From a virus: a stretch of DNA of 64,000 nucleotides. Within the stretch, counting starts at the first letter, position 1; each line of letters opens with the position of its first letter. Where the stretch lies: positions 267,571 through 331,570 of IMG/VR virus record IMGVR_UViG_3300017917_001123; one strand, 5' to 3'. The notes below the pieces were generated by a model. That model did no database searches and had not been told where the DNA came from. It saw nothing but the letters and a program-made list of their open reading frames with translations. The translations under genes were made by a program, and so were the position numbers. Below are positions 52,393 to 62,843 of the stretch, in pieces.

Positions 52393-52469
52393 ATATAAAC
52401 TTTGAAAGGACTACATCATGGCATATAGAGCTAAAAATGGTAGCGTAAAGGCAGCGGCACGTAGAGCAT

Positions 52470-52557
52470 TACGTCGTCGACAGAAATAATTTTATTGCTG
52501 TATGAAGCAAACCCAAAAGGGTTCTGGACGCGGGTTCGACTCCCGCCAGGTCCACCA
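52470..52557 (+). ncRNA. ssrA: tmRNA acceptor piece (3' tRNA-like half, ends CCA) of a permuted two-piece ssrA; 5' boundary approximate
   Basis: T-arm 'GCGGG-TTCGACT-CCCGC' (52530-52546), 3' acceptor strand 'CAGGTCC' + A + CCA (52547-52557). No matching 5' acceptor strand upstream, so this is not a tRNA. Confidence 0.65.
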
Positions 52558-52645
52558 AAAGAGGATTGTATGAACGAAGAAGTAACTAAATGGATGCTGG
52601 GCGTGGGCCTAGTTCTTTTAATGTTCTTTTTAGTCCTTTTTTGAT

Positions 52646-52839
52646 GGGCCTGTACTGGATTTCGACAGGGTCAAGAGTAGGCGAGTGGACAGCACGGTAG
52701 GCGATGACCGTAAATCAAGCAAAACAAAATAGACGCAAACGATGAAGTTTACGCATTGGCGGCCTAATAACGGCTTCCTAGGGTAGGAAATACCTCGTAA
52801 CAGAAAATACCAAAAGGCTCTTCGGAGCCTTTTTCTTTG
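52646..52839 (+). ncRNA. ssrA: tmRNA coding piece (5' acceptor strand, tag reading frame ANDEVYALAA, terminator)
   Basis: 5' 'GGGCCTGTACTGGATTTCGACAGGG' matches the tmRNA 5' consensus (E. coli GGGGCUGAUUCUGGAUUCGACGGG). GGGCCUG pairs with CAGGUCC of the upstream piece. 'UAG-AC-GCA AAC GAU GAA GUU UAC GCA UUG GCG GCC UAA UAA' at 52730-52770 parallels the E. coli resume region and tag. Confidence 0.75.
52813..52839 (+). terminator. rho-independent terminator of the tmRNA transcript
   Basis: AGGCTC-ttcg-GAGCCT followed by TTTTTCTTT. Confidence 0.65.
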
Positions 52840-52959: not shown

Positions 52960-53424
52960 ATGAGAAAATTCGCAATCGCATCAATCTTGGCTTTGGCCGC
53001 AGTTTCAGCTTCGGCTGTAGAACTTGGCGTTACCGCAACACGTGGTGACACCACAGGTGATACTCGCAACTACGCAGGTGTTACCCTTGGTCAAAGTTTT
53101 GGCAAGCTAAATGCAACTGCTGGCTTTGAGCGTTCAACTGTTGGCGCACAGGGCAATCAGAACCGCTGGAGCTTGGTTGGTGGATACGACATTGCCAAGG
53201 TTGGTCCAGTTACTTTTACTCCTAAACTTGGTTATGCTTACTTAGACAATCAGACTCCGGGTGTTGCCAGCGGCAATGCTTATACAGTTGGTCTAGGCGC
53301 ATCATACGCTCTCACTAAGCAAGTTAGCCTTACCGCAGACTATGCTTATCAAAAGGCCTTTGAAACAAAGGTTGAGCAGTTTGATGGCAACCGAGTTACA
53401 TTGGGTGCTAAGTACCGCTTCTAA
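52960..53424 (+). CDS. small outer-membrane beta-barrel protein (OmpX/Ail/OmpA-like OMP)
   Basis: Signal peptide 'MRKFAIASILALAAVSASAVE', alternating amphipathic beta-strands, and a C-terminal aromatic 'YRF' terminal signature. Confidence 0.6.
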   Translation: MRKFAIASILALAAVSASAVELGVTATRGDTTGDTRNYAGVTLGQSFGKLNATAGFERSTVGAQGNQNRWSLVGGYDIAKVGPVTFTPKLGYAYLDNQTPGVASGNAYTVGLGASYALTKQVSLTADYAYQKAFETKVEQFDGNRVTLGAKYRF

Positions 53425-55565: not shown

Positions 55566-56105
55566 ATGAAAACCGTTGGACAAAAATTAGATCCGTTTAT
55601 CGTAACTGGTGTTAAGCCAGGTCAACCTGAAGATGCTTTCTTCGACATCACCGAGGAATCATTCCCAGGTAAGTGGAAAGTAATCGTTTACTATCCAAAG
55701 GACTTTACATTCGTTTGCCCAACTGAAATTGTTGCCTACGATAAGTTGGCACAGGATTTCGCAGACCGCGACGCTGTATTGCTAACTGGTTCAACAGACA
55801 ACGAGTTCTGTAAGGTAGCTTGGCAGAAGGCACACCCAGATCTACAAAAGATCACTCACACTCAGTTCGCTGATACACAGCGTGGTGAGAACAGCCTAAT
55901 CGAGCAACTAGGTGTATTCTATGCTCCAGCAGGTGCGGCTCTTCGTGCTACATTCATTGTTGATCCTAACAACGAAATCCAGCACGTTACAGTCAACAAC
56001 TTGAACGTTGGTCGTAGCCCAGAGGAAACACTTCGTGTTCTTGATGCGCTACAAACTGGCGAGCTTTGCGCTTGTAACCGTGCTGTAGGCGGCGAAACAC
56101 TTTAA
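55566..56105 (+). CDS. peroxiredoxin (AhpC/Prx family)
   Basis: Peroxidatic Cys motif 'DFTFVCPTEI'. C-terminal 'GELCACN' is a candidate resolving Cys. Confidence 0.85.
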   Translation: MKTVGQKLDPFIVTGVKPGQPEDAFFDITEESFPGKWKVIVYYPKDFTFVCPTEIVAYDKLAQDFADRDAVLLTGSTDNEFCKVAWQKAHPDLQKITHTQFADTQRGENSLIEQLGVFYAPAGAALRATFIVDPNNEIQHVTVNNLNVGRSPEETLRVLDALQTGELCACNRAVGGETL

Positions 56106-56320: not shown

Positions 56321-56827
56321 ATGGCTTTTATTGAATCAATTAAACAAGCCTTGCCAGAGTACGCAAAGGATACCAAACTTAACTTGGATGCTGTCCTTTT
56401 GCGTAGCACATTGGATGCCGATGTGGCTATGGGCTGTGCGGTTGCCGCATTGGCCGCAACTGGCAATGGAAAGGTACTCGCAGTAATGTTGGCAGATGCT
56501 CCGGTACATGCCGAATCTGCGATGTGTGCCGCAAGCATTATGGCACAGAACAATGTATGGTATCCATATGTTGAAATGGCAGATGATGAGCAACTCAAAG
56601 GCTTGCCAGCACAGTTACGCATGAACGCAATCGCAAGTCATGGCGGAACTACAAAGGCAAACTTTGAAGCATTTAGTTTGGCGGCTAGTATTGTTGGCAA
56701 ATGTCATTTCTGTGTTAAGGCACACTATGACACATTGAAGCAAGAAGGCTACACAGTAGAACAGCTTCGTGACATTGGCCGTATTGCTAGTGTTATGAAC
56801 GCAGTAGCCAAAGTTTTAAACAGTTAA
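56321..56827 (+). CDS. ahpD: alkylhydroperoxidase AhpD-like (carboxymuconolactone decarboxylase family)
   Basis: 'GKCHFCVKAH' CxxC(H) active-site motif of AhpD. Confidence 0.7.
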   Translation: MAFIESIKQALPEYAKDTKLNLDAVLLRSTLDADVAMGCAVAALAATGNGKVLAVMLADAPVHAESAMCAASIMAQNNVWYPYVEMADDEQLKGLPAQLRMNAIASHGGTTKANFEAFSLAASIVGKCHFCVKAHYDTLKQEGYTVEQLRDIGRIASVMNAVAKVLNS

Positions 56828-56898: not shown

Positions 56899-56927
56899 TT
56901 GACCTTTTACCACTTTGACCTTATAAT
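56899..56927 (+). promoter_or_regulatory. sigma70-type early promoter TTGACC-17-TATAAT (rIIA)
   Basis: -35 at 56899-56904, -10 at 56922-56927, 43 nt upstream of the rIIA ATG. Confidence 0.55.
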
Positions 56928-56970: not shown

Positions 56971-59148
56971 ATGCAACTTTTGAACGCTGTCCAAAACGAA
57001 GCTATTTTGAGCAACGTTGGCGAAATTGGTGAGTTTCGTATCCGCAACTCTGCCAAAGCCTTTAACATCTTGTCCAGCGGTTTGTACGCAAACAAGATTA
57101 AGGCAATCGTTCGCGAATTGAGCTGTAACGCAGTTGACTCGCATACTGCCGCTGGTAAGTCAGACGTTCCGTTTGATGTTCATCTTCCTTCACAATTCGA
57201 ACCTTGGTTTGCTATTCGCGACTACGGTACTGGACTAAGCCATGAACAAGTTACTAACATCTATACGACTTATTTTGAGTCCACTAAGACTGCTTCAAAT
57301 GATTTCATTGGTGCTTTGGGTCTTGGCTCTAAGTCTCCTTTCAGCTACACTGACAATTTCACCGTAACCGCTATCCAAAACGGTCGCAAGGGTATCTACT
57401 CTGCTTTCATTAACGAAGCAGGTGTGCCTAGCATCGCATTGATGATGGAAGAAGCTACAGACGAAGCTAACGGTGTTGAAGTTAAGTTCTCTGTGAACGA
57501 ACGCTGGGACTTTGACAAGTTCCGCCAAGAAGCTCGTTCAGTCTACAAGTGGTTCAAGCAACAGCCCAATGTTATCGGTGTCAGCGACTTCAAGATCGAA
57601 GAAGTTGACTACGAAGACATGAACATTGTTCCTGGAGTTCACAGCCGTCAGCGCGGTTACGGCCATTCGGTTGCCGTTATGGGTAATATTGCTTACCCTA
57701 TCGAAATTCCTAACGCTGACCAAAGCCTCGGTGCTCTGCGTAAACTGTTGAGCTGTGGTCTTGTTATGGAGTTCAAAATTGGTGAACTGGACTTCCAAGC
57801 AAGCCGCGAAGGTTTGAGCTACATTCCTCAGACCATCGCTAGCATTAAGGCTAAGTTGGAAGAACTGAACGGTGCTTTGGCCGGAAAGTTGGCTGAAGAA
57901 GCAGATGCTATTACTAACCAGTGGGAAAAGGCTTTGTTCCTGTCCACTCGTGCTGATAAGGATCTGTGGTCTGCGGCTACTCGTAAGTACATCGCTGACA
58001 CTAAGTTTGAGCTGATCGAAGATCGTTCTGGCTATCTGCGTACTAAGGCATTTGGTCTTAAGACTGAAGATCTCCAAAAGGACTACAACATTATCCTTCG
58101 TGGCTTTAGCAAAGGTCGCGGATCTGTTACTTGTTCTAACATGACTGCTGGTCGTGAATACGACTATCACAAAAAGGACGCTAACGGTCATTCGCTGTCT
58201 TGGACTGAGTGGCGCATGAGCATCAGCAACGGTGTTCAGTTTGTTGTAAACGATACCAAAGTTGGTGCTACCGAACGTGCTAAGAACCACTGGCGCAAGT
58301 GTAAGCAGGACGACCTGCCGCACCAAAGCCATGTGTATGTTGTCGAGCCGTTTGACCGCACTAAGCCGATGAAGACCAAGGAGTTTTTTGAGTTGATCAA
58401 GAATCCTCCGGAGTGCCAAATCCGTTTGGCAAGCTCGCTGATTGAGAAGGAACGTGCCCAAGGTACTAGCCTGAAGAACGTTACTATCCTTAAGCTGGCT
58501 CCTCGTGGCTACGGCGGTTACTATCGTGAACGTGAAATGGTTTGGAAGGACGCAGGTAAGGCTGATCAGTTTGATCAGACCAAAACTTACTACTACATTC
58601 CGTTGAGCGGTTTCGAAATGAACAGTTCTTGTGGTTACACTTCTGGTAAAGAATTGTGGACTGAACTCAAAGAAAGTAAGATGGGTGTTTGCCCAGAAAC
58701 TATCTACGGTGTTCGCAAGTCGGACATTGAGTTTATCCGTACACAAGCTAACTGGGTTAATTTGGAAAAGCATATCAAGGAAACTTTGGAAAAAGTAACC
58801 GAACAAGATATGGTGAAATTTGCTGTTAGCCTACTTGACAATTCCAATGTTGCCAAGTACAATAGTAGCATTGTAAACGGTATTTCAAACCCGAATAGCC
58901 CTTACGTGGTCTTTGTGAATAAACTCAAGGACGTCCAAGCAGAGAGCTTTAACGAACATTACGTCAAGCGTCTGTTTAGTCGTTTCAAGATTCAAGCGCA
59001 CGACCCGTCTGCTATCGCTGAGAAGTTCCGTAAGGAATGTAACGATGTTATCAGTCGTTATCCGTTGATCGACTACGTGCCTAGTAGTAAAGCTACCCAA
59101 GCCCTGGTTGATTACATTAATATGGTTGACACACAGAAAGGTGTTTAA
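56971..59148 (+). CDS. rIIA: rIIA protein (membrane-associated, GHKL-ATPase-like N-terminus)
   Basis: '[30 protein letters not shown]' and '[27 protein letters not shown]' closely match T4 rIIA ('[30 protein letters not shown]', '[27 protein letters not shown]'). Confidence 0.85.
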   Translation: [725 protein letters not shown]

Positions 59149-59149
59149 A

Positions 59150-59917
59150 ATGAGCTATCCGTTTTTGATTCAAGGTAAGAACATTGTTGTCGTTATCGGC
59201 AATAACAGTCATACCATCAGTTCTACTCATATCAGCTATGAGAAGATCAAAGAGGCTATTAAGGCCAACGATTGGGATACTGTAAAGGATCTCATTGAGC
59301 CTCGTAAGGTTGTGCTGAACTACGGTGCTGGTAACATCGCTATCCAAGGTGATAAGATGTTCTGGAAGGGCACCGAGTTCCATAACACTTTGGCCGCCCG
59401 CATTGTTGAGATGTACCAAGAAGGCTTCCCGATTGAGCCAATGGTTAACTTCATGGAAAACTTGATGACTAACCCTAGTAAGCGAGCCGTCGATGAACTG
59501 TACAAGTTCCTCGAAAAGGGTAACCTGCCGATTACTTCGGACGGTCACTTCCTGGCTTACAAGAAAGTCCGTGAAGACTATTTGGACTGCCACAGTGGTA
59601 CTATGGACAATAGTGTCGGTAAGATTGTCGAAATGGAACGTAACCAAGTCGATGACGACAAGAATAACACTTGTTCTACCGGTCTCCACTTCTGTAGCAA
59701 GGAGTACTTGAACCACTTTGGTGGAGCTCGTACTATGATCCTTAAGATCAACCCTCGCGATGTAGTTTCTATTCCTAGCGACTACAATGCAACCAAGGGT
59801 CGTGCTTGCCGCTACGAAGTGGTTGGCGAAGTTGGTGTTTCGGTTGAAGAAGCAGAAGCGGCATTCACTGCTCCTGTCCAAGACTGGAATGTCAATAACC
59901 CGAGTGACATGGAATGA
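59150..59917 (+). CDS. rIIB: rIIB protein
   Basis: 'FMENLMTNPSKRAVDELYKFL...DGHFLAYKKVREDYLDCHSGTMDNSVGKIVEM...TCSTGLHFCSKEY...INPRDVVSIPSDYN' parallels T4 rIIB ('FLENLLENPSQKAVSRLFDFL...DGYFYAWKVVRSNYFDCHSNTFDNSPGKVVKM...TCSRGLHVCSKSY...VHPRDVVSIPIDYN'). Start taken at the ATG right after the rIIA stop. Confidence 0.8.
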   Translation: MSYPFLIQGKNIVVVIGNNSHTISSTHISYEKIKEAIKANDWDTVKDLIEPRKVVLNYGAGNIAIQGDKMFWKGTEFHNTLAARIVEMYQEGFPIEPMVNFMENLMTNPSKRAVDELYKFLEKGNLPITSDGHFLAYKKVREDYLDCHSGTMDNSVGKIVEMERNQVDDDKNNTCSTGLHFCSKEYLNHFGGARTMILKINPRDVVSIPSDYNATKGRACRYEVVGEVGVSVEEAEAAFTAPVQDWNVNNPSDME

Positions 59918-60090
59918 TTAAGATCATTCTTGCGTTTCTGATTGCCTTTGGTATCTGCTTTTTGGGTATCAAAGGCTTCAGAAATTTAACCGGAAAAGAC
60001 CGTTGGGCATTGACAAAACTCCTTGCCTACAGTACAATATGTTCATTGCTAGCAATAGCAATACTTGTTTTAATCGTCATTCTTTTTTAA
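59914..60090 (+). CDS. small membrane protein (2 predicted TM helices)
   Basis: 58 aa 'MIKIILAFLIAFGICFLG...LLAIAILVLIVILF'. ATGA overlap with the rIIB stop. Under 60 aa, so absent from the ORF track. Confidence 0.35.
   Translation: MIKIILAFLIAFGICFLGIKGFRNLTGKDRWALTKLLAYSTICSLLAIAILVLIVILF
60010..60038 (+). promoter_or_regulatory. sigma70-type promoter TTGACA-17-TACAAT
   Basis: -35 at 60010-60015, -10 at 60033-60038, 64 nt upstream of the lipoprotein ATG. Confidence 0.45.
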
Positions 60091-60101
60091 GGAAATTTAC
60101 A

Positions 60102-60896
60102 ATGAAGCGTTCCGCAATTTTGGGTATTTTGGGTTTGGCTATTTTGGCTACGGGTTGTACCCGAATCGAAACCGGTGAGGTTGGTGTGCGAGTGGGCTTT
60201 GACAAACAAGTCCAACCTGGCGAACTGTTGCCCGGTAGTTTCAATCAAGTTATCATCGGTGATGTGCTTACATTCCCAATCAAGGACGTTAACGTCAAAT
60301 TGGAAGACATGACTCCGGTTGCTAAAGATAATAGTACAATGAAAGACCTTGATGCTGTGGTTATCTACAACATCAATCAAGCGCAGGTTGCTGAACTGTA
60401 CAGTCAAAAGAGTCAAGCGTTTCACGCTAAACACCAAGGCGATATCTACTTGATGTACAACTACATTGTTCAAACTGCTCGTAATGCGATCTACAAAGAA
60501 GCACGTAAGTATGAAGCATTGGACATGGCGGACAATCGACAGGCAATGGAACAAGCAATTAAAGAACAAATCCAAAAGTCGTTGGCTGAAGAAAAGCTCG
60601 ACGGTAGTTTGGTTGTTAGTCAAGTTTTGATTCGTAACATTGTGCCTGCTGATTCTGTAGTTGAAAGTGCCAACGCTCTTGTTCGTGCTAAGAACGAGTA
60701 CAAGCAGAAGGAAGTTGAAGTGGCCACTGCTAAGAAAGAAGCAGAACGTATGGCCGCACTGGCTAACAACTCTGCTAGTTCGATTGCCTTTATGAACGCA
60801 CAGGCCGCACTTAATATCTCCGAAGGTATTAAGAACGGTAAGGTACAGACTATTGTTGTACCGAGCAACATGACTGGTTTGATGATTAACAAGTAA
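60102..60896 (+). CDS. SPFH/band-7 (stomatin/prohibitin/HflK-like) domain lipoprotein
   Basis: The ORF is taken from the internal ATG at 60102, giving the lipoprotein signal 'MKRSAILGILGLAILATGC' with the lipobox LATG|C. 'IETGEVGVRVGFDK' and the following segment resemble the start of an SPFH domain. Coiled-coil C-terminus. Confidence 0.55.
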   Translation: MKRSAILGILGLAILATGCTRIETGEVGVRVGFDKQVQPGELLPGSFNQVIIGDVLTFPIKDVNVKLEDMTPVAKDNSTMKDLDAVVIYNINQAQVAELYSQKSQAFHAKHQGDIYLMYNYIVQTARNAIYKEARKYEALDMADNRQAMEQAIKEQIQKSLAEEKLDGSLVVSQVLIRNIVPADSVVESANALVRAKNEYKQKEVEVATAKKEAERMAALANNSASSIAFMNAQAALNISEGIKNGKVQTIVVPSNMTGLMINK

Positions 60897-60901
60897 TCAG
60901 G

Positions 60902-60928
60902 ATAGGGCAGGCAACTGCCCTATTTTCA
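60902..60928 (+). terminator. rho-independent terminator
   Basis: TAGGGCAG-gcaa-CTGCCCTA followed by TTTTC. Confidence 0.55.
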
Positions 60929-60930
60929 AA

Positions 60931-61191
60931 ATGAAACAGCGTGGATTTACCCTCATCGAAATGCTAATTGCTGTAGTCTTTGCCCTGTGCTTGATTACAT
61001 TCATCGCAAATGCTGTCAATGGATTCAGCAACGGTGGCAATATTAGTTTTGGAATCAACGGCATGACCGAAAGCCGTTGTATCGAAGGCTACAAGTTTAT
61101 CGTTGGACAAGAAGGACAGGCCCGTCAAATCCTCGATGAGTTTGGCAAAGGTGTACGCTGTCAGACTAATCCAACTCCGGGCAAGCTATGA
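60931..61191 (+). CDS. type IV prepilin-like protein (pilin/pseudopilin N-terminal signal)
   Basis: 'MKQRG|FTLIEMLIAVVFAL' is a class III (prepilin peptidase) signal with conserved Gly-1, Phe+1 and Glu+5. Two C-terminal Cys (RCIEG...RCQT) could form the pilin disulfide. Confidence 0.6.
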   Translation: MKQRGFTLIEMLIAVVFALCLITFIANAVNGFSNGGNISFGINGMTESRCIEGYKFIVGQEGQARQILDEFGKGVRCQTNPTPGKL

Positions 61192-61664
61192 AGTTTTTTG
61201 ATAGATCAGGAGCACATTGGTTATTCTGGGCAGGAGTGGTATATCTTGTCGTTGGACTAACTGATATCTTCTTATTCAACAAATTTTTTAGTGAATGGAT
61301 ACATGTAGTTTGGATTCTTGTAATTAGTGCGCCTTTTTGGTTTCCTCCCTTAGGGCGTTGGCTTAATTTGGATGTAACCTGGGATCAAAAAATGTTTAAC
61401 TTCTTTAAAGGCAAAAAGCCTAGTAATGTTGTTCCTTTTCCTGAACCTAAATCGGTGCCTAAAATGCCAGAAGTACACACACCTCCTGCTCCAGAACCTG
61501 ACAAAGCTGGAAAGACTTATTACCAACTTGGTCTCACTGATAACAACCGTGTATGCTTTACAATGGGCTACACTCAAATCACGATGAATCGAGCAGGTGT
61601 CCAACAAATGATTAACCAACTTGAGTTCTATCAAAGCCAGCTCTACGATGAAAGCGAAGAGTAA
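61188..61664 (+). CDS. membrane protein (2 TM helices)
   Basis: 'WLFWAGVVYLVVGLTDIFLF' and 'VVWILVISAPFWFPPLG' hydrophobic segments. Confidence 0.45.
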   Translation: MKFFDRSGAHWLFWAGVVYLVVGLTDIFLFNKFFSEWIHVVWILVISAPFWFPPLGRWLNLDVTWDQKMFNFFKGKKPSNVVPFPEPKSVPKMPEVHTPPAPEPDKAGKTYYQLGLTDNNRVCFTMGYTQITMNRAGVQQMINQLEFYQSQLYDESEE

Positions 61665-61885
61665 TGAATCGGCACTACTGTATCAGAGAAACAGACAGCG
61701 GTTCTGAACCTTGCGATATCCTTTTGGACCACGGACTTAAAAGTCCAGACTTCCGAACTTATGTTATTCGTAAGGAAGATTTGTTTCCTTGGAAGATCGC
61801 ACACGAGCTAAACAATGCTTATCAAGCAGGTCGAGCAGATGCTATGCGTGAACTAAGAGACTTCATCGGGATTAAGAGTAATTAA
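61664..61885 (+). CDS. hypothetical protein
   Basis: 73-aa ORF. Confidence 0.4.
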   Translation: MNRHYCIRETDSGSEPCDILLDHGLKSPDFRTYVIRKEDLFPWKIAHELNNAYQAGRADAMRELRDFIGIKSN

Positions 61886-62046
61886 TGGGGCTTTGGAATT
61901 TTGTAGTCGATATGTCTCAAGAAGGTCGTATAAACGAACTTCAAGAACGTGTTGAAAAGCTAGAAGAACAGAATCAAATTTTGTACGAATGGGTACAGTA
62001 CTTTAGAAAGAAAGAAGATGAGCAAAATAGCAACAAACTTCCTTGA
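61885..62046 (+). CDS. small coiled-coil ORF (53 aa)
   Basis: MGLWNFVVDMSQEGRINELQERVEKLEEQNQILYEW.... Starts at a TAATGG overlap and partially overlaps the next ORF. Low confidence. Confidence 0.25.
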   Translation: MGLWNFVVDMSQEGRINELQERVEKLEEQNQILYEWVQYFRKKEDEQNSNKLP

Positions 62047-62230
62047 CCCTATGCGTCTGCCCTGTGGCGGTACAGCATACTTTGACGAGTCTAGCGGTAT
62101 TAGTTATCGCTGTGAGGATTGCGGTGCTGTAGTTGGTAGTATCGGACAGCCTAGAAGCTGTGTAGAAGAAGCAAAGAAATACGAAGTCTGGGAATTACTG
62201 GGCGGAAAAGGTTGGGACTATTTTCAATAA
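62018..62230 (+). CDS. small zinc-ribbon protein
   Basis: 'RLPCGG...YRCEDCGAV' CxxG...CxxC pattern. 70 aa. The tRNA starts immediately after its stop. Confidence 0.4.
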   Translation: MSKIATNFLDPMRLPCGGTAYFDESSGISYRCEDCGAVVGSIGQPRSCVEEAKKYEVWELLGGKGWDYFQ

Positions 62231-62306
62231 GCGTCTGTAGCTAAGTGGCATAGCAGGAGCCTCTAAAACTCTGAATCGCGGGTTCGATTCCCGCCAGACG
62301 CACCAA
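62231..62306 (+). tRNA. tRNA with anticodon loop CU-CUA-AA (putative amber suppressor tRNA-Sup(CUA))
   Basis: Full cloverleaf by hand: acceptor gcgtctg/cagacgc, D-arm gcta-agtggca-tagc, anticodon stem ggagc/actct (one C-A mismatch at 31-39), loop ctctaaa, 5-nt variable loop, T-arm gcggg-ttcgatt-cccgc, discriminator A, encoded CCA. Confidence 0.7.
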
Positions 62307-62317
62307 ATGTTAAAACC

Positions 62318-62500
62318 ATGATACCACATACACAATACGAACGCTTAATTCTCCTCGAAGAAATTGAACGAGGTGATAAAGTTGTAATTCCTACAAGTAT
62401 GGAACATGCTCGTTTCATGTTGCGGGTAGCACAGTTTTATATTGATCAACAACATCAAAACTTGATCGATACTATCAAAAACTCGGAAGGCAAACAATGA
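62318..62500 (+). CDS. hypothetical protein
   Basis: 60-aa ORF. Confidence 0.35.
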   Translation: MIPHTQYERLILLEEIERGDKVVIPTSMEHARFMLRVAQFYIDQQHQNLIDTIKNSEGKQ

Positions 62501-62599
62501 CAGATAACATGACTTTAAATATAATCTGTGCTTTTATTGTGGGAGTGCCGATGTTCTATGTTGCGTGGAGGATTTTAAAATTAATCGACCAGAAATGAC
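62498..62599 (+). CDS. small single-TM peptide (33 aa)
   Basis: MTDNMTLNIICAFIVGVPMFYVAWRILKLIDQK, ATGA-coupled to both neighbours. Under 60 aa, so absent from the ORF track. Confidence 0.3.
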
Positions 62600-62843
62600 T
62601 CCGGAAGAAGCTCGTGCCTTTATTAGAAAGGTAATGGGTCCTCCTAAGCGACAACTTGAAGGCAAAGAACGAGATCACGTTTGGTTATTGATTAAAATGT
62701 CAACACCTGTGCGTGAATCTAACAACCAACGTTTTTGGCACGAAGAATATCTTATCGGCGGACGTAGGTATGATGTAACCTATGGTGTTGAAGATAACCC
62801 TATTGTGGAGGTCTACGAAGATGAGACTGATGTTGGGAACTAA
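62595..62843 (+). CDS. hypothetical protein
   Basis: The ATG at 62595 (ATGA overlap) is preferred over the GTG at 62565. Confidence 0.4.
   Translation: MTPEEARAFIRKVMGPPKRQLEGKERDHVWLLIKMSTPVRESNNQRFWHEEYLIGGRRYDVTYGVEDNPIVEVYEDETDVGN

Follow-up and report, generated by a model that had tools for sequence, protein, structure and literature searches.

Genes downstream of rIIB in a large environmental phage combine an SPFH lipoprotein with a mini type IV pilin-like protein of an apparently virus-specific family

Four consecutive genes, here called A to D, lie directly downstream of rIIA and rIIB in a 64,000-nucleotide stretch of the IMG/VR virus record IMGVR_UViG_3300017917_001123 (positions 267,571 to 331,570 of that record; hereafter the window, whose own numbering is used below). 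They encode a small membrane peptide (A), an SPFH/Band-7 lipoprotein (B), a mini type IV pilin-like protein (C) and a further membrane protein (D), and they are the sole run of consecutive membrane-protein genes within the window. We tentatively read them as an early-expressed phage envelope cassette, composed of two sub-modules that often occur together and acting in envelope remodelling or superinfection exclusion via the type IV filament machinery of the host. All four open reading frames (ORFs) are present at the coordinates given by the original prediction, whose observation is upheld in every particular. Profile searches back its domain calls, i.e., a peptide with two transmembrane (TM) segments, an SPFH lipoprotein, a prepilin signal combined with a Cys pair, and a membrane protein; SPFH homology was found for B, and so was a class III signal for C.

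The link to type IV filaments comes from gene C. Its N-terminus, MKQRG/FTLIEMLIAVVFALCLITFIA (the slash marks the predicted cleavage site), consists of a short basic leader running to Gly(-1), followed by Phe+1, Glu+5 and a hydrophobic alpha-1N helix with a Kyte-Doolittle peak of 2.78, and scores above threshold against both PF07963 N_methyl (28.1 bits vs 21.2) and TIGR02532 (25.2 bits vs 16.3). The remainder is a head of ~45 residues, for which four beta-strands are predicted and in which the Cys50-Cys77 pair is conserved, and the AlphaFold2 (AF2) model, with a predicted local distance difference test (pLDDT) score of 76.7, consists of a helix at residues 8-33 plus four strands. Across 120 aligned homologs, Gly5 (Gly-1) and both Cys50 and Cys77 are invariant, Phe6 (Phe+1) and Glu10 (Glu+5) are kept in at least 90%, and the head motif G.NG..E.RC…Q..DE.GKG..C is largely invariant. 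Divergent members retain the prepilin signal and the Cys pair, many of them with the textbook major-pilin helix FTLIELMIVIAIIGILAAI..P, and the profile matches of C are major pilins and GspG. At the sequence level, strong purifying selection is evident on the prepilin signal, on the head of C and on all of B.

The family to which C belongs is large. An exhaustive profile search of 1.84 billion cluster representatives returned 418 clusters (50% identity) at E <= 1e-3, 135 of them at E <= 1e-10, and nearly all 418 are 70-105 amino acids (aa) long and match end to end; in a collection clustered at 90%, 788 homologs were found at E <= 0.01, the 120 listed spanning 78-105 aa. A combined pattern and tblastn scan of 185,579 bacterial and archaeal species, one genome each, detected no relative of C, and the family therefore looks virus-specific. 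The mini-pilin is also solitary, being the sole ORF with a prepilin motif within +/-8 kb at each of 70 loci and within the whole 64-kb window. No polytopic prepilin-peptidase-like ORF was found in the window, so that processing of C would depend on the host.

Gene B carries the second recognisable domain. Its signal peptide, MKRSAILGILGLAILATG immediately followed by Cys19, conforms to the lipobox pattern; all 30 homologs compared have Cys19, and bacterial homologs have canonical LAGC or LVAC boxes at the same position. Pfam Band_7 (PF01145), the profile against which the original prediction had suggested checking B, matches at 71.3 bits (E 1.3e-19; threshold 23.6) from residue 21 to residue 214, covering profile positions 2-176 of 176 and beginning two residues past Cys19. 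Attachment to the membrane just before the SPFH domain is thus present as a predicted lipid anchor at Cys19, not as a TM helix. The SPFH domain is followed by an extended helical (coiled-coil) region and, at the C-terminus, by the motif GKVQTIVVPS. B also matches PHROG 200 'lipoprotein' (E 1.8e-33), and A, B and D are without an NCBIfam match.

Searched as a single sequence, B found no match in the PDB, and the family was compared with solved structures by means of a profile that combined B and its relatives with two further phage SPFH lineages. This profile matches prohibitin-2 best (E 1e-17, query residues 20-259), followed by QmcA (11-255) and stomatin (10-259), as well as prohibitin-1 and HflK/C, and the matches cover the SPFH domain and the helical and C-terminal regions of these cage-forming members. 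B resembles them also in its N-terminal membrane attachment, but with a predicted lipid anchor in place of the N-terminal TM helix it would be wholly periplasmic. In contrast to HflK/C and to SPFH-NfeD pairs, B has no NfeD-type or FtsH-type partner gene and is accompanied by the hairpin peptide encoded by A instead. The literature found on phage SPFH proteins consists of annotations, plus one virion-proteomics listing with 3 peptides.

Homologs of B are abundant (5431 at E <= 1e-5); identity is 82% or higher for the best 120, whose contigs reach 357 kb. Homologs are also found on bacterial chromosomes, in Bdellovibrionota (Bdellovibrio and Bacteriovorax, 65-73% identity) and in Burkholderiales (Polaromonas, Rhodoferax, Aquabacterium, Massilia and others, 53-60%), aligning over their full length, with the same lipobox position and SPFH start and a shared N-terminus, (lipobox)C-TRIETGE. 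They differ from B in being stand-alone genes, and no functional characterisation of them was found. The existence of such close stand-alone chromosomal homologs leads us to read B as host-derived, and B looks like a host-type gene carried by a phage. Additionally, the phage SPFH protein is nearer to the Bdellovibrionota homologs (L076-L086; loci are cited by L-numbers) than to those of Burkholderiales (L089-L154), and the family is unusually conserved across these phyla, the Bdellovibrio and Polaromonas proteins being 66% identical; this suggests horizontal transfer of the SPFH gene among predatory bacteria, their prey and phages.

The small peptide encoded by A accompanies B closely. As originally described, its start codon overlaps the rIIB stop codon as ATGA, and its 58 residues form two hydrophobic segments (Kyte-Doolittle 19-residue peaks 2.64 and 2.97), a putative hairpin of two TM helices separated by the basic loop KGFRNLTGKDRWALTK. 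A matches no family in Pfam, PHROG, NCBIfam or PADLOC. In at least 21 viral loci and in Synechococcus phage BUCT-ZZ01, a homolog of exactly 58 aa is encoded 5' of the SPFH gene, and in this phage lineage A is always immediately 5' of the SPFH lipoprotein gene; no homolog of A was found beside the bacterial SPFH homologs. A is best read as a phage-specific addition to a host-type SPFH gene. Phage SPFH genes are repeatedly accompanied by a small TM peptide: in Acinetobacter phage PhT2 and Synechococcus phage S-CREM1, too, the SPFH gene is preceded by one for a small peptide with two TM segments. By analogy, A resembles only the membrane part of an NfeD protein: it has two TM helices only and no match to NfeD or any other Pfam family. 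A role for A as an NfeD-like partner or as a holin was considered and rejected, no Pfam or PHROG profile supporting either.

Gene D, whose start codon overlaps the stop codon of C (ATGA), has one strong TM segment and one weaker one by hydropathy and matches no family in Pfam, PHROG or NCBIfam. Comparison with related loci identifies it as a fusion protein in which a Pro-rich linker connects a TM module at the N-terminus (Dn) with a soluble module at the C-terminus (Dc, with the motif YYQLGLTDNNRV). Elsewhere, Dn-like ORFs of 66-67 aa lie between the SPFH gene and the pilin gene, and in many loci Dc-like ORFs of 90-120 aa lie just 3' of the pilin gene; in L003, for example, Dn and Dc are separate genes on either side of it. 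Dc is also found 3' of the pilin gene in loci without SPFH. The D modules thus undergo fusion and fission around the pilin, as seen from gene order.

A nucleotide search of positions 59000-62500 against 50,697 phage records returned zero matches, and the context of the locus was therefore drawn from protein-level searches. Synteny was compared across 64 IMG/VR loci encoding the mini-pilin, together with loci from other sources, L008 and L009 among them. In 27 of the 64, A and a B-type SPFH gene lie beside the mini-pilin, upstream of it in every case except L050, where they are 1.1 kb downstream. The usual order is A, SPFH, then Dn, a small lipoprotein or nothing, then the pilin, optionally Dc, and two conserved small genes. 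A second SPFH lineage, whose members have a TM anchor and share 21-24% identity with B, is located 0.8-2.3 kb from the pilin in four further IMG/VR loci (L021, L052, L058 and L059) as well as in L008 and L009, preceded by an ORF of 40-52 aa that is a TM peptide in L021 and L052. Altogether, an SPFH gene of either lineage occurs within ~3.5 kb of the mini-pilin in 31 of the 64 viral loci, and in L044, L046 and L047 the SPFH stop codon and the pilin start codon are one base apart (TAATATG).

A comparable arrangement is found in Aeromonas phage 44RR2.8t, in which SPFH and N-methyl-motif ORFs were listed as Pfam hits; the part of that paper concerned with them does not discuss their adjacency (Nolan et al., 2006, PMC1524935). 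There, within a plastic region of a T4-like genome, a small ORF (ORF099c), an SPFH/Band_7 gene (ORF098c), a 72-aa prepilin with a Cys pair (ORF097c, MKG/FTLIELMIVVVIIAILAAIAIPAF) and an envelope lipoprotein (ORF096c) follow one another. The components differ, however, from those of the window: the SPFH protein is TM-anchored and ~16% identical, the prepilin head is unrelated in sequence, and the upstream ORF is soluble and not a TM hairpin. Linkage of SPFH genes with a mini-prepilin is thus recurrent at the level of gene order, seen with two SPFH lineages and in the independent case of 44RR2.8t. It follows that the original statement that SPFH and pseudopilin-like genes are not standard T4 genes stands for T4 itself, but not for its relatives, since such ORFs had been tabulated in T4-like phages in 2006 (PMC1524935) and the SPFH lipoprotein falls within the large PHROG 200. 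Members of the latter, from Ackermannviridae and from Acinetobacter and Erwinia phages, likewise are SPFH lipoproteins of large virulent phages, several with a small two-TM peptide 5', although they are only 26-34% identical to B. In Vi01-like phages (Salmonella phage SJ3, L157 3403-4720; PhiSH19, PMC3220722), the SPFH lipoprotein gene directly follows a gene annotated, by annotation only, as 'superinfection exclusion'.

The promoters place the cassette in an early context. The sigma-70-type site that the original prediction had assigned to B is present inside gene A, and TTGAC[AT]-N16-18-TAnnnT recurs at the same place in the A homolog of 17 of 25 related loci, with a spacer of varying sequence. 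Together with the near-consensus sites 5' of rIIA and rIIB, it makes three plus-strand matches of at least 11/12 in 5.6 kb (56.8 to 62.4 kb); a first-order Markov model predicts 0.04, and 0 of 500 simulations reached three. The three near-consensus sites, of which the one inside A is conserved, mean that the cassette lies in a region that would be read from host-type early promoters, a context of the early-promoter type as judged from these motifs. Such sites are not confined to the region: the window contains ten matches of at least 11/12, nine on the plus strand (starting at 1991, 18312, 45524, 52364, 52854, 56899, 58835, 60010 and 62497) and one on the minus strand (36356), and this phage seems to depend strongly on promoters of host type that are nearly perfect. 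Between B and C lies a GC-rich hairpin with a minimum free energy of -18.1 kcal/mol (z = -4.1 vs shuffles), the C start codon following 5 nucleotides beyond. A terminator scan did not call this hairpin, which is followed by merely 4 U, and it is a possible weak terminator, attenuator or mRNA-stabilising structure. Comparable hairpins are found 3' of B in L013, L014 and BUCT-ZZ01, and elsewhere the B stop codon abuts the next start codon (TAATATG).

A functional tie of the cassette to the rII genes had also been put forward. The adjacency is correct, and PHROG profiles confirm rIIA and rIIB as the upstream neighbours, but the functional link is weak, because among related loci the rII neighbourhood is shared by L014 alone. 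To judge from gene order, the cassette travels independently of rII.

The processing of C by a peptidase, cage formation by B, the A-B and C-D partnerships and the biological role are inferred. B would be lipidated and located on the periplasmic face of a membrane, where, like prohibitin, HflK/C, QmcA and stomatin, it probably assembles into a large ring or cage enclosing a patch of membrane, with A as its likely membrane partner or client. The host prepilin peptidase would cut C after Gly5, and processed C would be anchored in the inner membrane, exposing its small disulfide-bonded head to the periplasm. It could then enter the host type IV pilus or the type II secretion pseudopilus and be incorporated into, cap or poison the filament, with the D modules as possible partners. 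The phage would benefit in that receptors are masked or superinfection is excluded, or in that the infected cell's pili or secretion are shut down altogether.

The role in host filaments is proposed for C because of precedents in other viruses. Prophage FimU-like minor pilins of Pseudomonas (P-FimU) enter pili and block phages that bind the pilus tip, and virulent phages encode PilA-like proteins (P-PilA), some truncated to ~60 aa (Sztanko et al., 2024, bioRxiv 10.1101/2024.03.29.587342); experimental precedent thus exists for the earlier suggestion that a phage pilin-like protein could act on host type IV pili. C is similar to these proteins in that it is a phage gene product with a class III signal, would depend on host machinery and has small counterparts in virulent phages, and the role shown or proposed for P-FimU and P-PilA is the protection of the infected or lysogenic cell from pilus-dependent phages. 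Their heads, however, resemble host FimU or PilA, whereas that of C is without a detectable homolog and its family was not found in the bacterial genomes scanned. Unlike P-FimU, C belongs to a large lytic-type environmental phage and lies in an early region, often beside SPFH and small TM genes. Likewise, the pilins of the archaeal virus SNJ2 use the secretion and assembly machinery of the host (Xiang et al., 2025, PMC12426801), although SNJ2 is a temperate virus whose full-size pilins, apparently acquired from host chromosomes, form dominant surface filaments that are the receptor for another virus.

Several observations weigh against a common function for the cassette. About half of the mini-pilin loci are not tied to SPFH: in ~20 loci the mini-pilin lies between an AAA-like gene and a UvsW-like helicase gene, and in 3-4 loci between MoxR-type AAA and DUF2201 genes, with a Dc homolog 3' of the pilin. 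In BUCT-ZZ01, which encodes both the 58-aa peptide and SPFH pair (49% identity) and a mini-pilin homolog (44%), pilin and SPFH are 12 kb apart. No prepilin was found within 4 kb of the SPFH lipoprotein gene in the four cultured phage genomes examined (Acinetobacter, Salmonella and Synechococcus phages, PHROG 200 members being compared on this point), and no homolog of A, C or D within 5 kb of the bacterial SPFH homologs, where the gene stands alone. Phages with SPFH and without prepilin, together with stand-alone bacterial homologs, suggest that the two sub-modules may work independently. The related loci also share ancestry, so that locus counts overstate the number of independent events, and the AF2 model of B is poor (pLDDT 46.9, from a shallow alignment whose members are all at least 82% identical, with a helix at 183-244 at low confidence). 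As an observation apart, the MoxR-type AAA (AAA_3/AAA_5)/DUF2201 context (L006 4585-8106, also L036 and L056) is a distinct setting of the same pilin gene; the DUF2201 protein is presumably a VWA-type partner of MoxR ATPases.

These observations are what would be expected if A to D were unrelated accessory genes ('morons') in a plastic early region, neighbours through shared descent and a tolerance for small membrane-protein genes, with B alone serving as a host-like SPFH scaffold that would favour membrane organisation, respiration or FtsH-type proteolysis while the infection lasts, and C alone acting on pili. The three gene contexts of the pilin fit this explanation, as do the separation in BUCT-ZZ01, the SPFH genes without prepilin in four cultured phage groups and alone in bacteria, and the stable hairpin and separate promoter that split the cassette of the window into transcription units. 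Against it, two SPFH lineages only ~21-24% identical to each other both lie within ~3.5 kb of the same mini-pilin family, an unrelated mini-prepilin adjoins SPFH in 44RR2.8t, and SPFH and pilin are spaced by one base in three loci. Moreover, random placement of an SPFH gene in a 150-330-kb genome would bring it within 3.5 kb of the pilin in a few percent of cases, vs the 31 of 64 observed. We consider independent accessory genes a real though rather unlikely explanation, both for the set as a whole and for the separate roles of B and C, and keep the envelope cassette as our provisional reading.

Alternatively, C might use its prepilin signal only to reach a defined inner-membrane topology and to be processed at the N-terminus, while its conserved head binds a non-pilus periplasmic target and C never enters a filament. 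Candidate targets would be the tail lysozyme or DNA-injection apparatus of an incoming phage, as for T4 Sp and Imm, or a host defence sensor. No relative of the head of C was detected by sequence or by fold, and only the N-terminal helix matches solved pilins; because the head is without a detectable relative, its target need not be a pilus, which tells against the filament proposal. Conservation is, in addition, higher in the head than in the hydrophobic helix, no member of the family was found in the bacterial genomes scanned, and no other pilin, assembly ATPase or secretin gene was found near the mini-pilin at any of the loci examined. Yet the near-invariant Glu+5 is a residue needed for the packing of filament subunits, the alpha-1N pattern of many members is that of major pilins, and it is major pilins and GspG that C matches at the profile level. 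A purely non-filament role for C is unlikely in our judgement, and entry into a host filament is retained as part of the envelope cassette reading.

A stronger form of the cassette reading would join the SPFH protein and its TM peptide, the mini-pilin and the Dn/Dc proteins in one system, in which an SPFH ring on the periplasmic face corrals the processed mini-pilin or the host pilus platform, so that the machine builds a stub or plug specified by the phage or is shut off. We hold this to be quite improbable.

The original prediction had further mentioned anti-defence and lysis timing. The former found no backing, since PADLOC gave no meaningful defence-system match and PHROGs no functional match for A to D. 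Least probable of all, and by a clear measure improbable, is a lysis or lysis-inhibition module with rIIA and rIIB, in which A would be a class II holin- or antiholin-like peptide, C an RI-like periplasmic sensor and B a stabiliser of the membrane until lysis: the position directly 3' of rIIA/rIIB with an ATGA overlap, the small two-TM product of A and a layout of C (an N-terminal membrane helix and a small disulfide-bonded periplasmic head) resembling that of T4 RI would agree with it, but A to D have no holin, antiholin, endolysin or spanin match in Pfam or PHROGs (for A, C and D no match to holin, antiholin, Imm, Sp or RI families at E <= 0.01), no endolysin or spanin gene lies nearby, the promoters are early ones of sigma-70 type, while late expression is typical of lysis genes, the rII neighbourhood recurs in L014 only, A is always paired with SPFH and not with a lysin and ends hydrophobic, without the charged C-terminal tail usual in holins, and the G/FTLIE signal is conserved far beyond the need of a simple anchor.

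The phage itself is large (contig of ~331 kb), with a G+C content of ~41% in the window, and the best full-length match of its rIIA is in the Ralstonia jumbo phage RsoM2USA (344 kb); given its size and this match, an assignment to T4 proper does not hold. A transfer-messenger RNA (tmRNA), an unusual phage cargo that is useful as a host hint, matches the Betaproteobacteria two-piece tmRNA family (Rfam RF01850, 152.6 bits, E 1e-47) and also the permuted-tmRNA model, with the tag ANDEVYALAA according to ARAGORN. The tmRNA type, the RsoM2USA match and the Burkholderiales SPFH homologs point to a betaproteobacterial host, as an indication and not as a host assignment. Betaproteobacterial hosts normally possess type IV pili, type II secretion and a PilD-type peptidase.

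Other features of the region are listed with the cassette in Table 1. An AhpC/TSA peroxiredoxin gene (Pfam, 73 bits) and an AhpD-like gene of the CMD family (41.8 bits) directly 5' of rIIA form a host-like peroxide-detoxification pair. A 154-aa ORF 6.5 kb 5' of the cassette, with the Sec signal peptide MRKFAIASILALAAVSASA, scores 37.6 bits against Porin_4 and 32.1 bits against OMP_b-brl and would be another phage envelope protein, of outer-membrane beta-barrel families. On the other side, ~570 nucleotides 3' of gene D, a tRNA with anticodon CUA (65 bits on Rfam tRNA, labelled 'Pyl' by ARAGORN) is of the amber-suppressor type and could indicate stop-codon readthrough or recoding. Two small ORFs 3' of D have no family assignment: a 73-aa ORF with 73% identity to an ORF of L014, and an 82-aa ORF of the small-protein family 'f12', which lies 3' of the pilin cassette in 13 related loci.

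Table 1. Coordinates of the predicted cassette genes and of other features of the window
Feature	Position	Strand	Description
gene A	59914-60090	+	58-aa two-TM hairpin peptide
gene B	60102-60896	+	264-aa SPFH/Band-7 (prohibitin-like) lipoprotein
gene C	60931-61191	+	86-aa mini type IV pilin-like protein
gene D	61188-61664	+	158-aa membrane protein
rIIA	56971-59148	+	PHROG 612 RIIA, E 9e-133
rIIB	59150-59917	+	PHROG 609 RIIB, E 7e-84
sigma-70-type promoter-like site TTGACA-17-TACAAT	60010-60038	+	inside gene A, 64 nucleotides before the B start codon, 11/12 match
near-consensus sigma-70 promoter-like site	56899-56927	+	5' of rIIA
near-consensus sigma-70 promoter-like site	58835-58863	+	5' of rIIB
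GC-rich hairpin	60899-60926	+	between B and C; 12-bp stem, GCAA loop, then UUUUC
tmRNA	52447-52836	+	
154-aa ORF	52960-53424	+	Sec signal peptide
AhpC/TSA peroxiredoxin	55566-56105	+	
AhpD-like CMD-family protein	56321-56827	+	
73-aa ORF	61664-61885	+	
tRNA, anticodon CUA	62231-62305	+	
82-aa ORF	62595-62843	+	small-protein family 'f12'

Parts of this picture are already known: SPFH lipoproteins in phages are represented by PHROG 200, SPFH and N-methyl ORFs were tabulated in T4-like phages in 2006, and there is one experimentally characterised example of a bacterial phage pilin. What appears to be new is the size of the mini-pilin family, the fact that none of the scanned bacterial and archaeal genomes encodes it, its head without a detectable relative, and its recurrent association with SPFH, the TM peptide, Dn and Dc; an incomplete literature search found no paper describing the size of the family, its head or the SPFH association.

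Type IV pili and type II secretion systems are major phage receptors and machines of virulence or competence. To our knowledge, the phage proteins that tamper with them (Tip, PfsE and P-FimU) are few and all come from temperate or filamentous phages of Pseudomonas. The present analysis adds a mini-pilin family that comes from virulent-type environmental phages, comprises at least 418 clusters at 50% identity, has a head domain of a new kind and is repeatedly linked to SPFH. Should the genes prove unrelated, the region would be no more than well-annotated accessory cargo. The SPFH part is a tractable example of a virus borrowing a prohibitin-like scaffold. If the two sub-modules did form a joint system, hundreds of uncultured T4-like and jumbo phages from freshwater would share a new and conserved way of taking over a nanomachine on the bacterial surface. 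If the mini-pilin family does act on host filaments, it would provide a minimal pilin of ~80 residues for the study of filament assembly, and receptor remodelling by substitute subunits would be widespread in nature.

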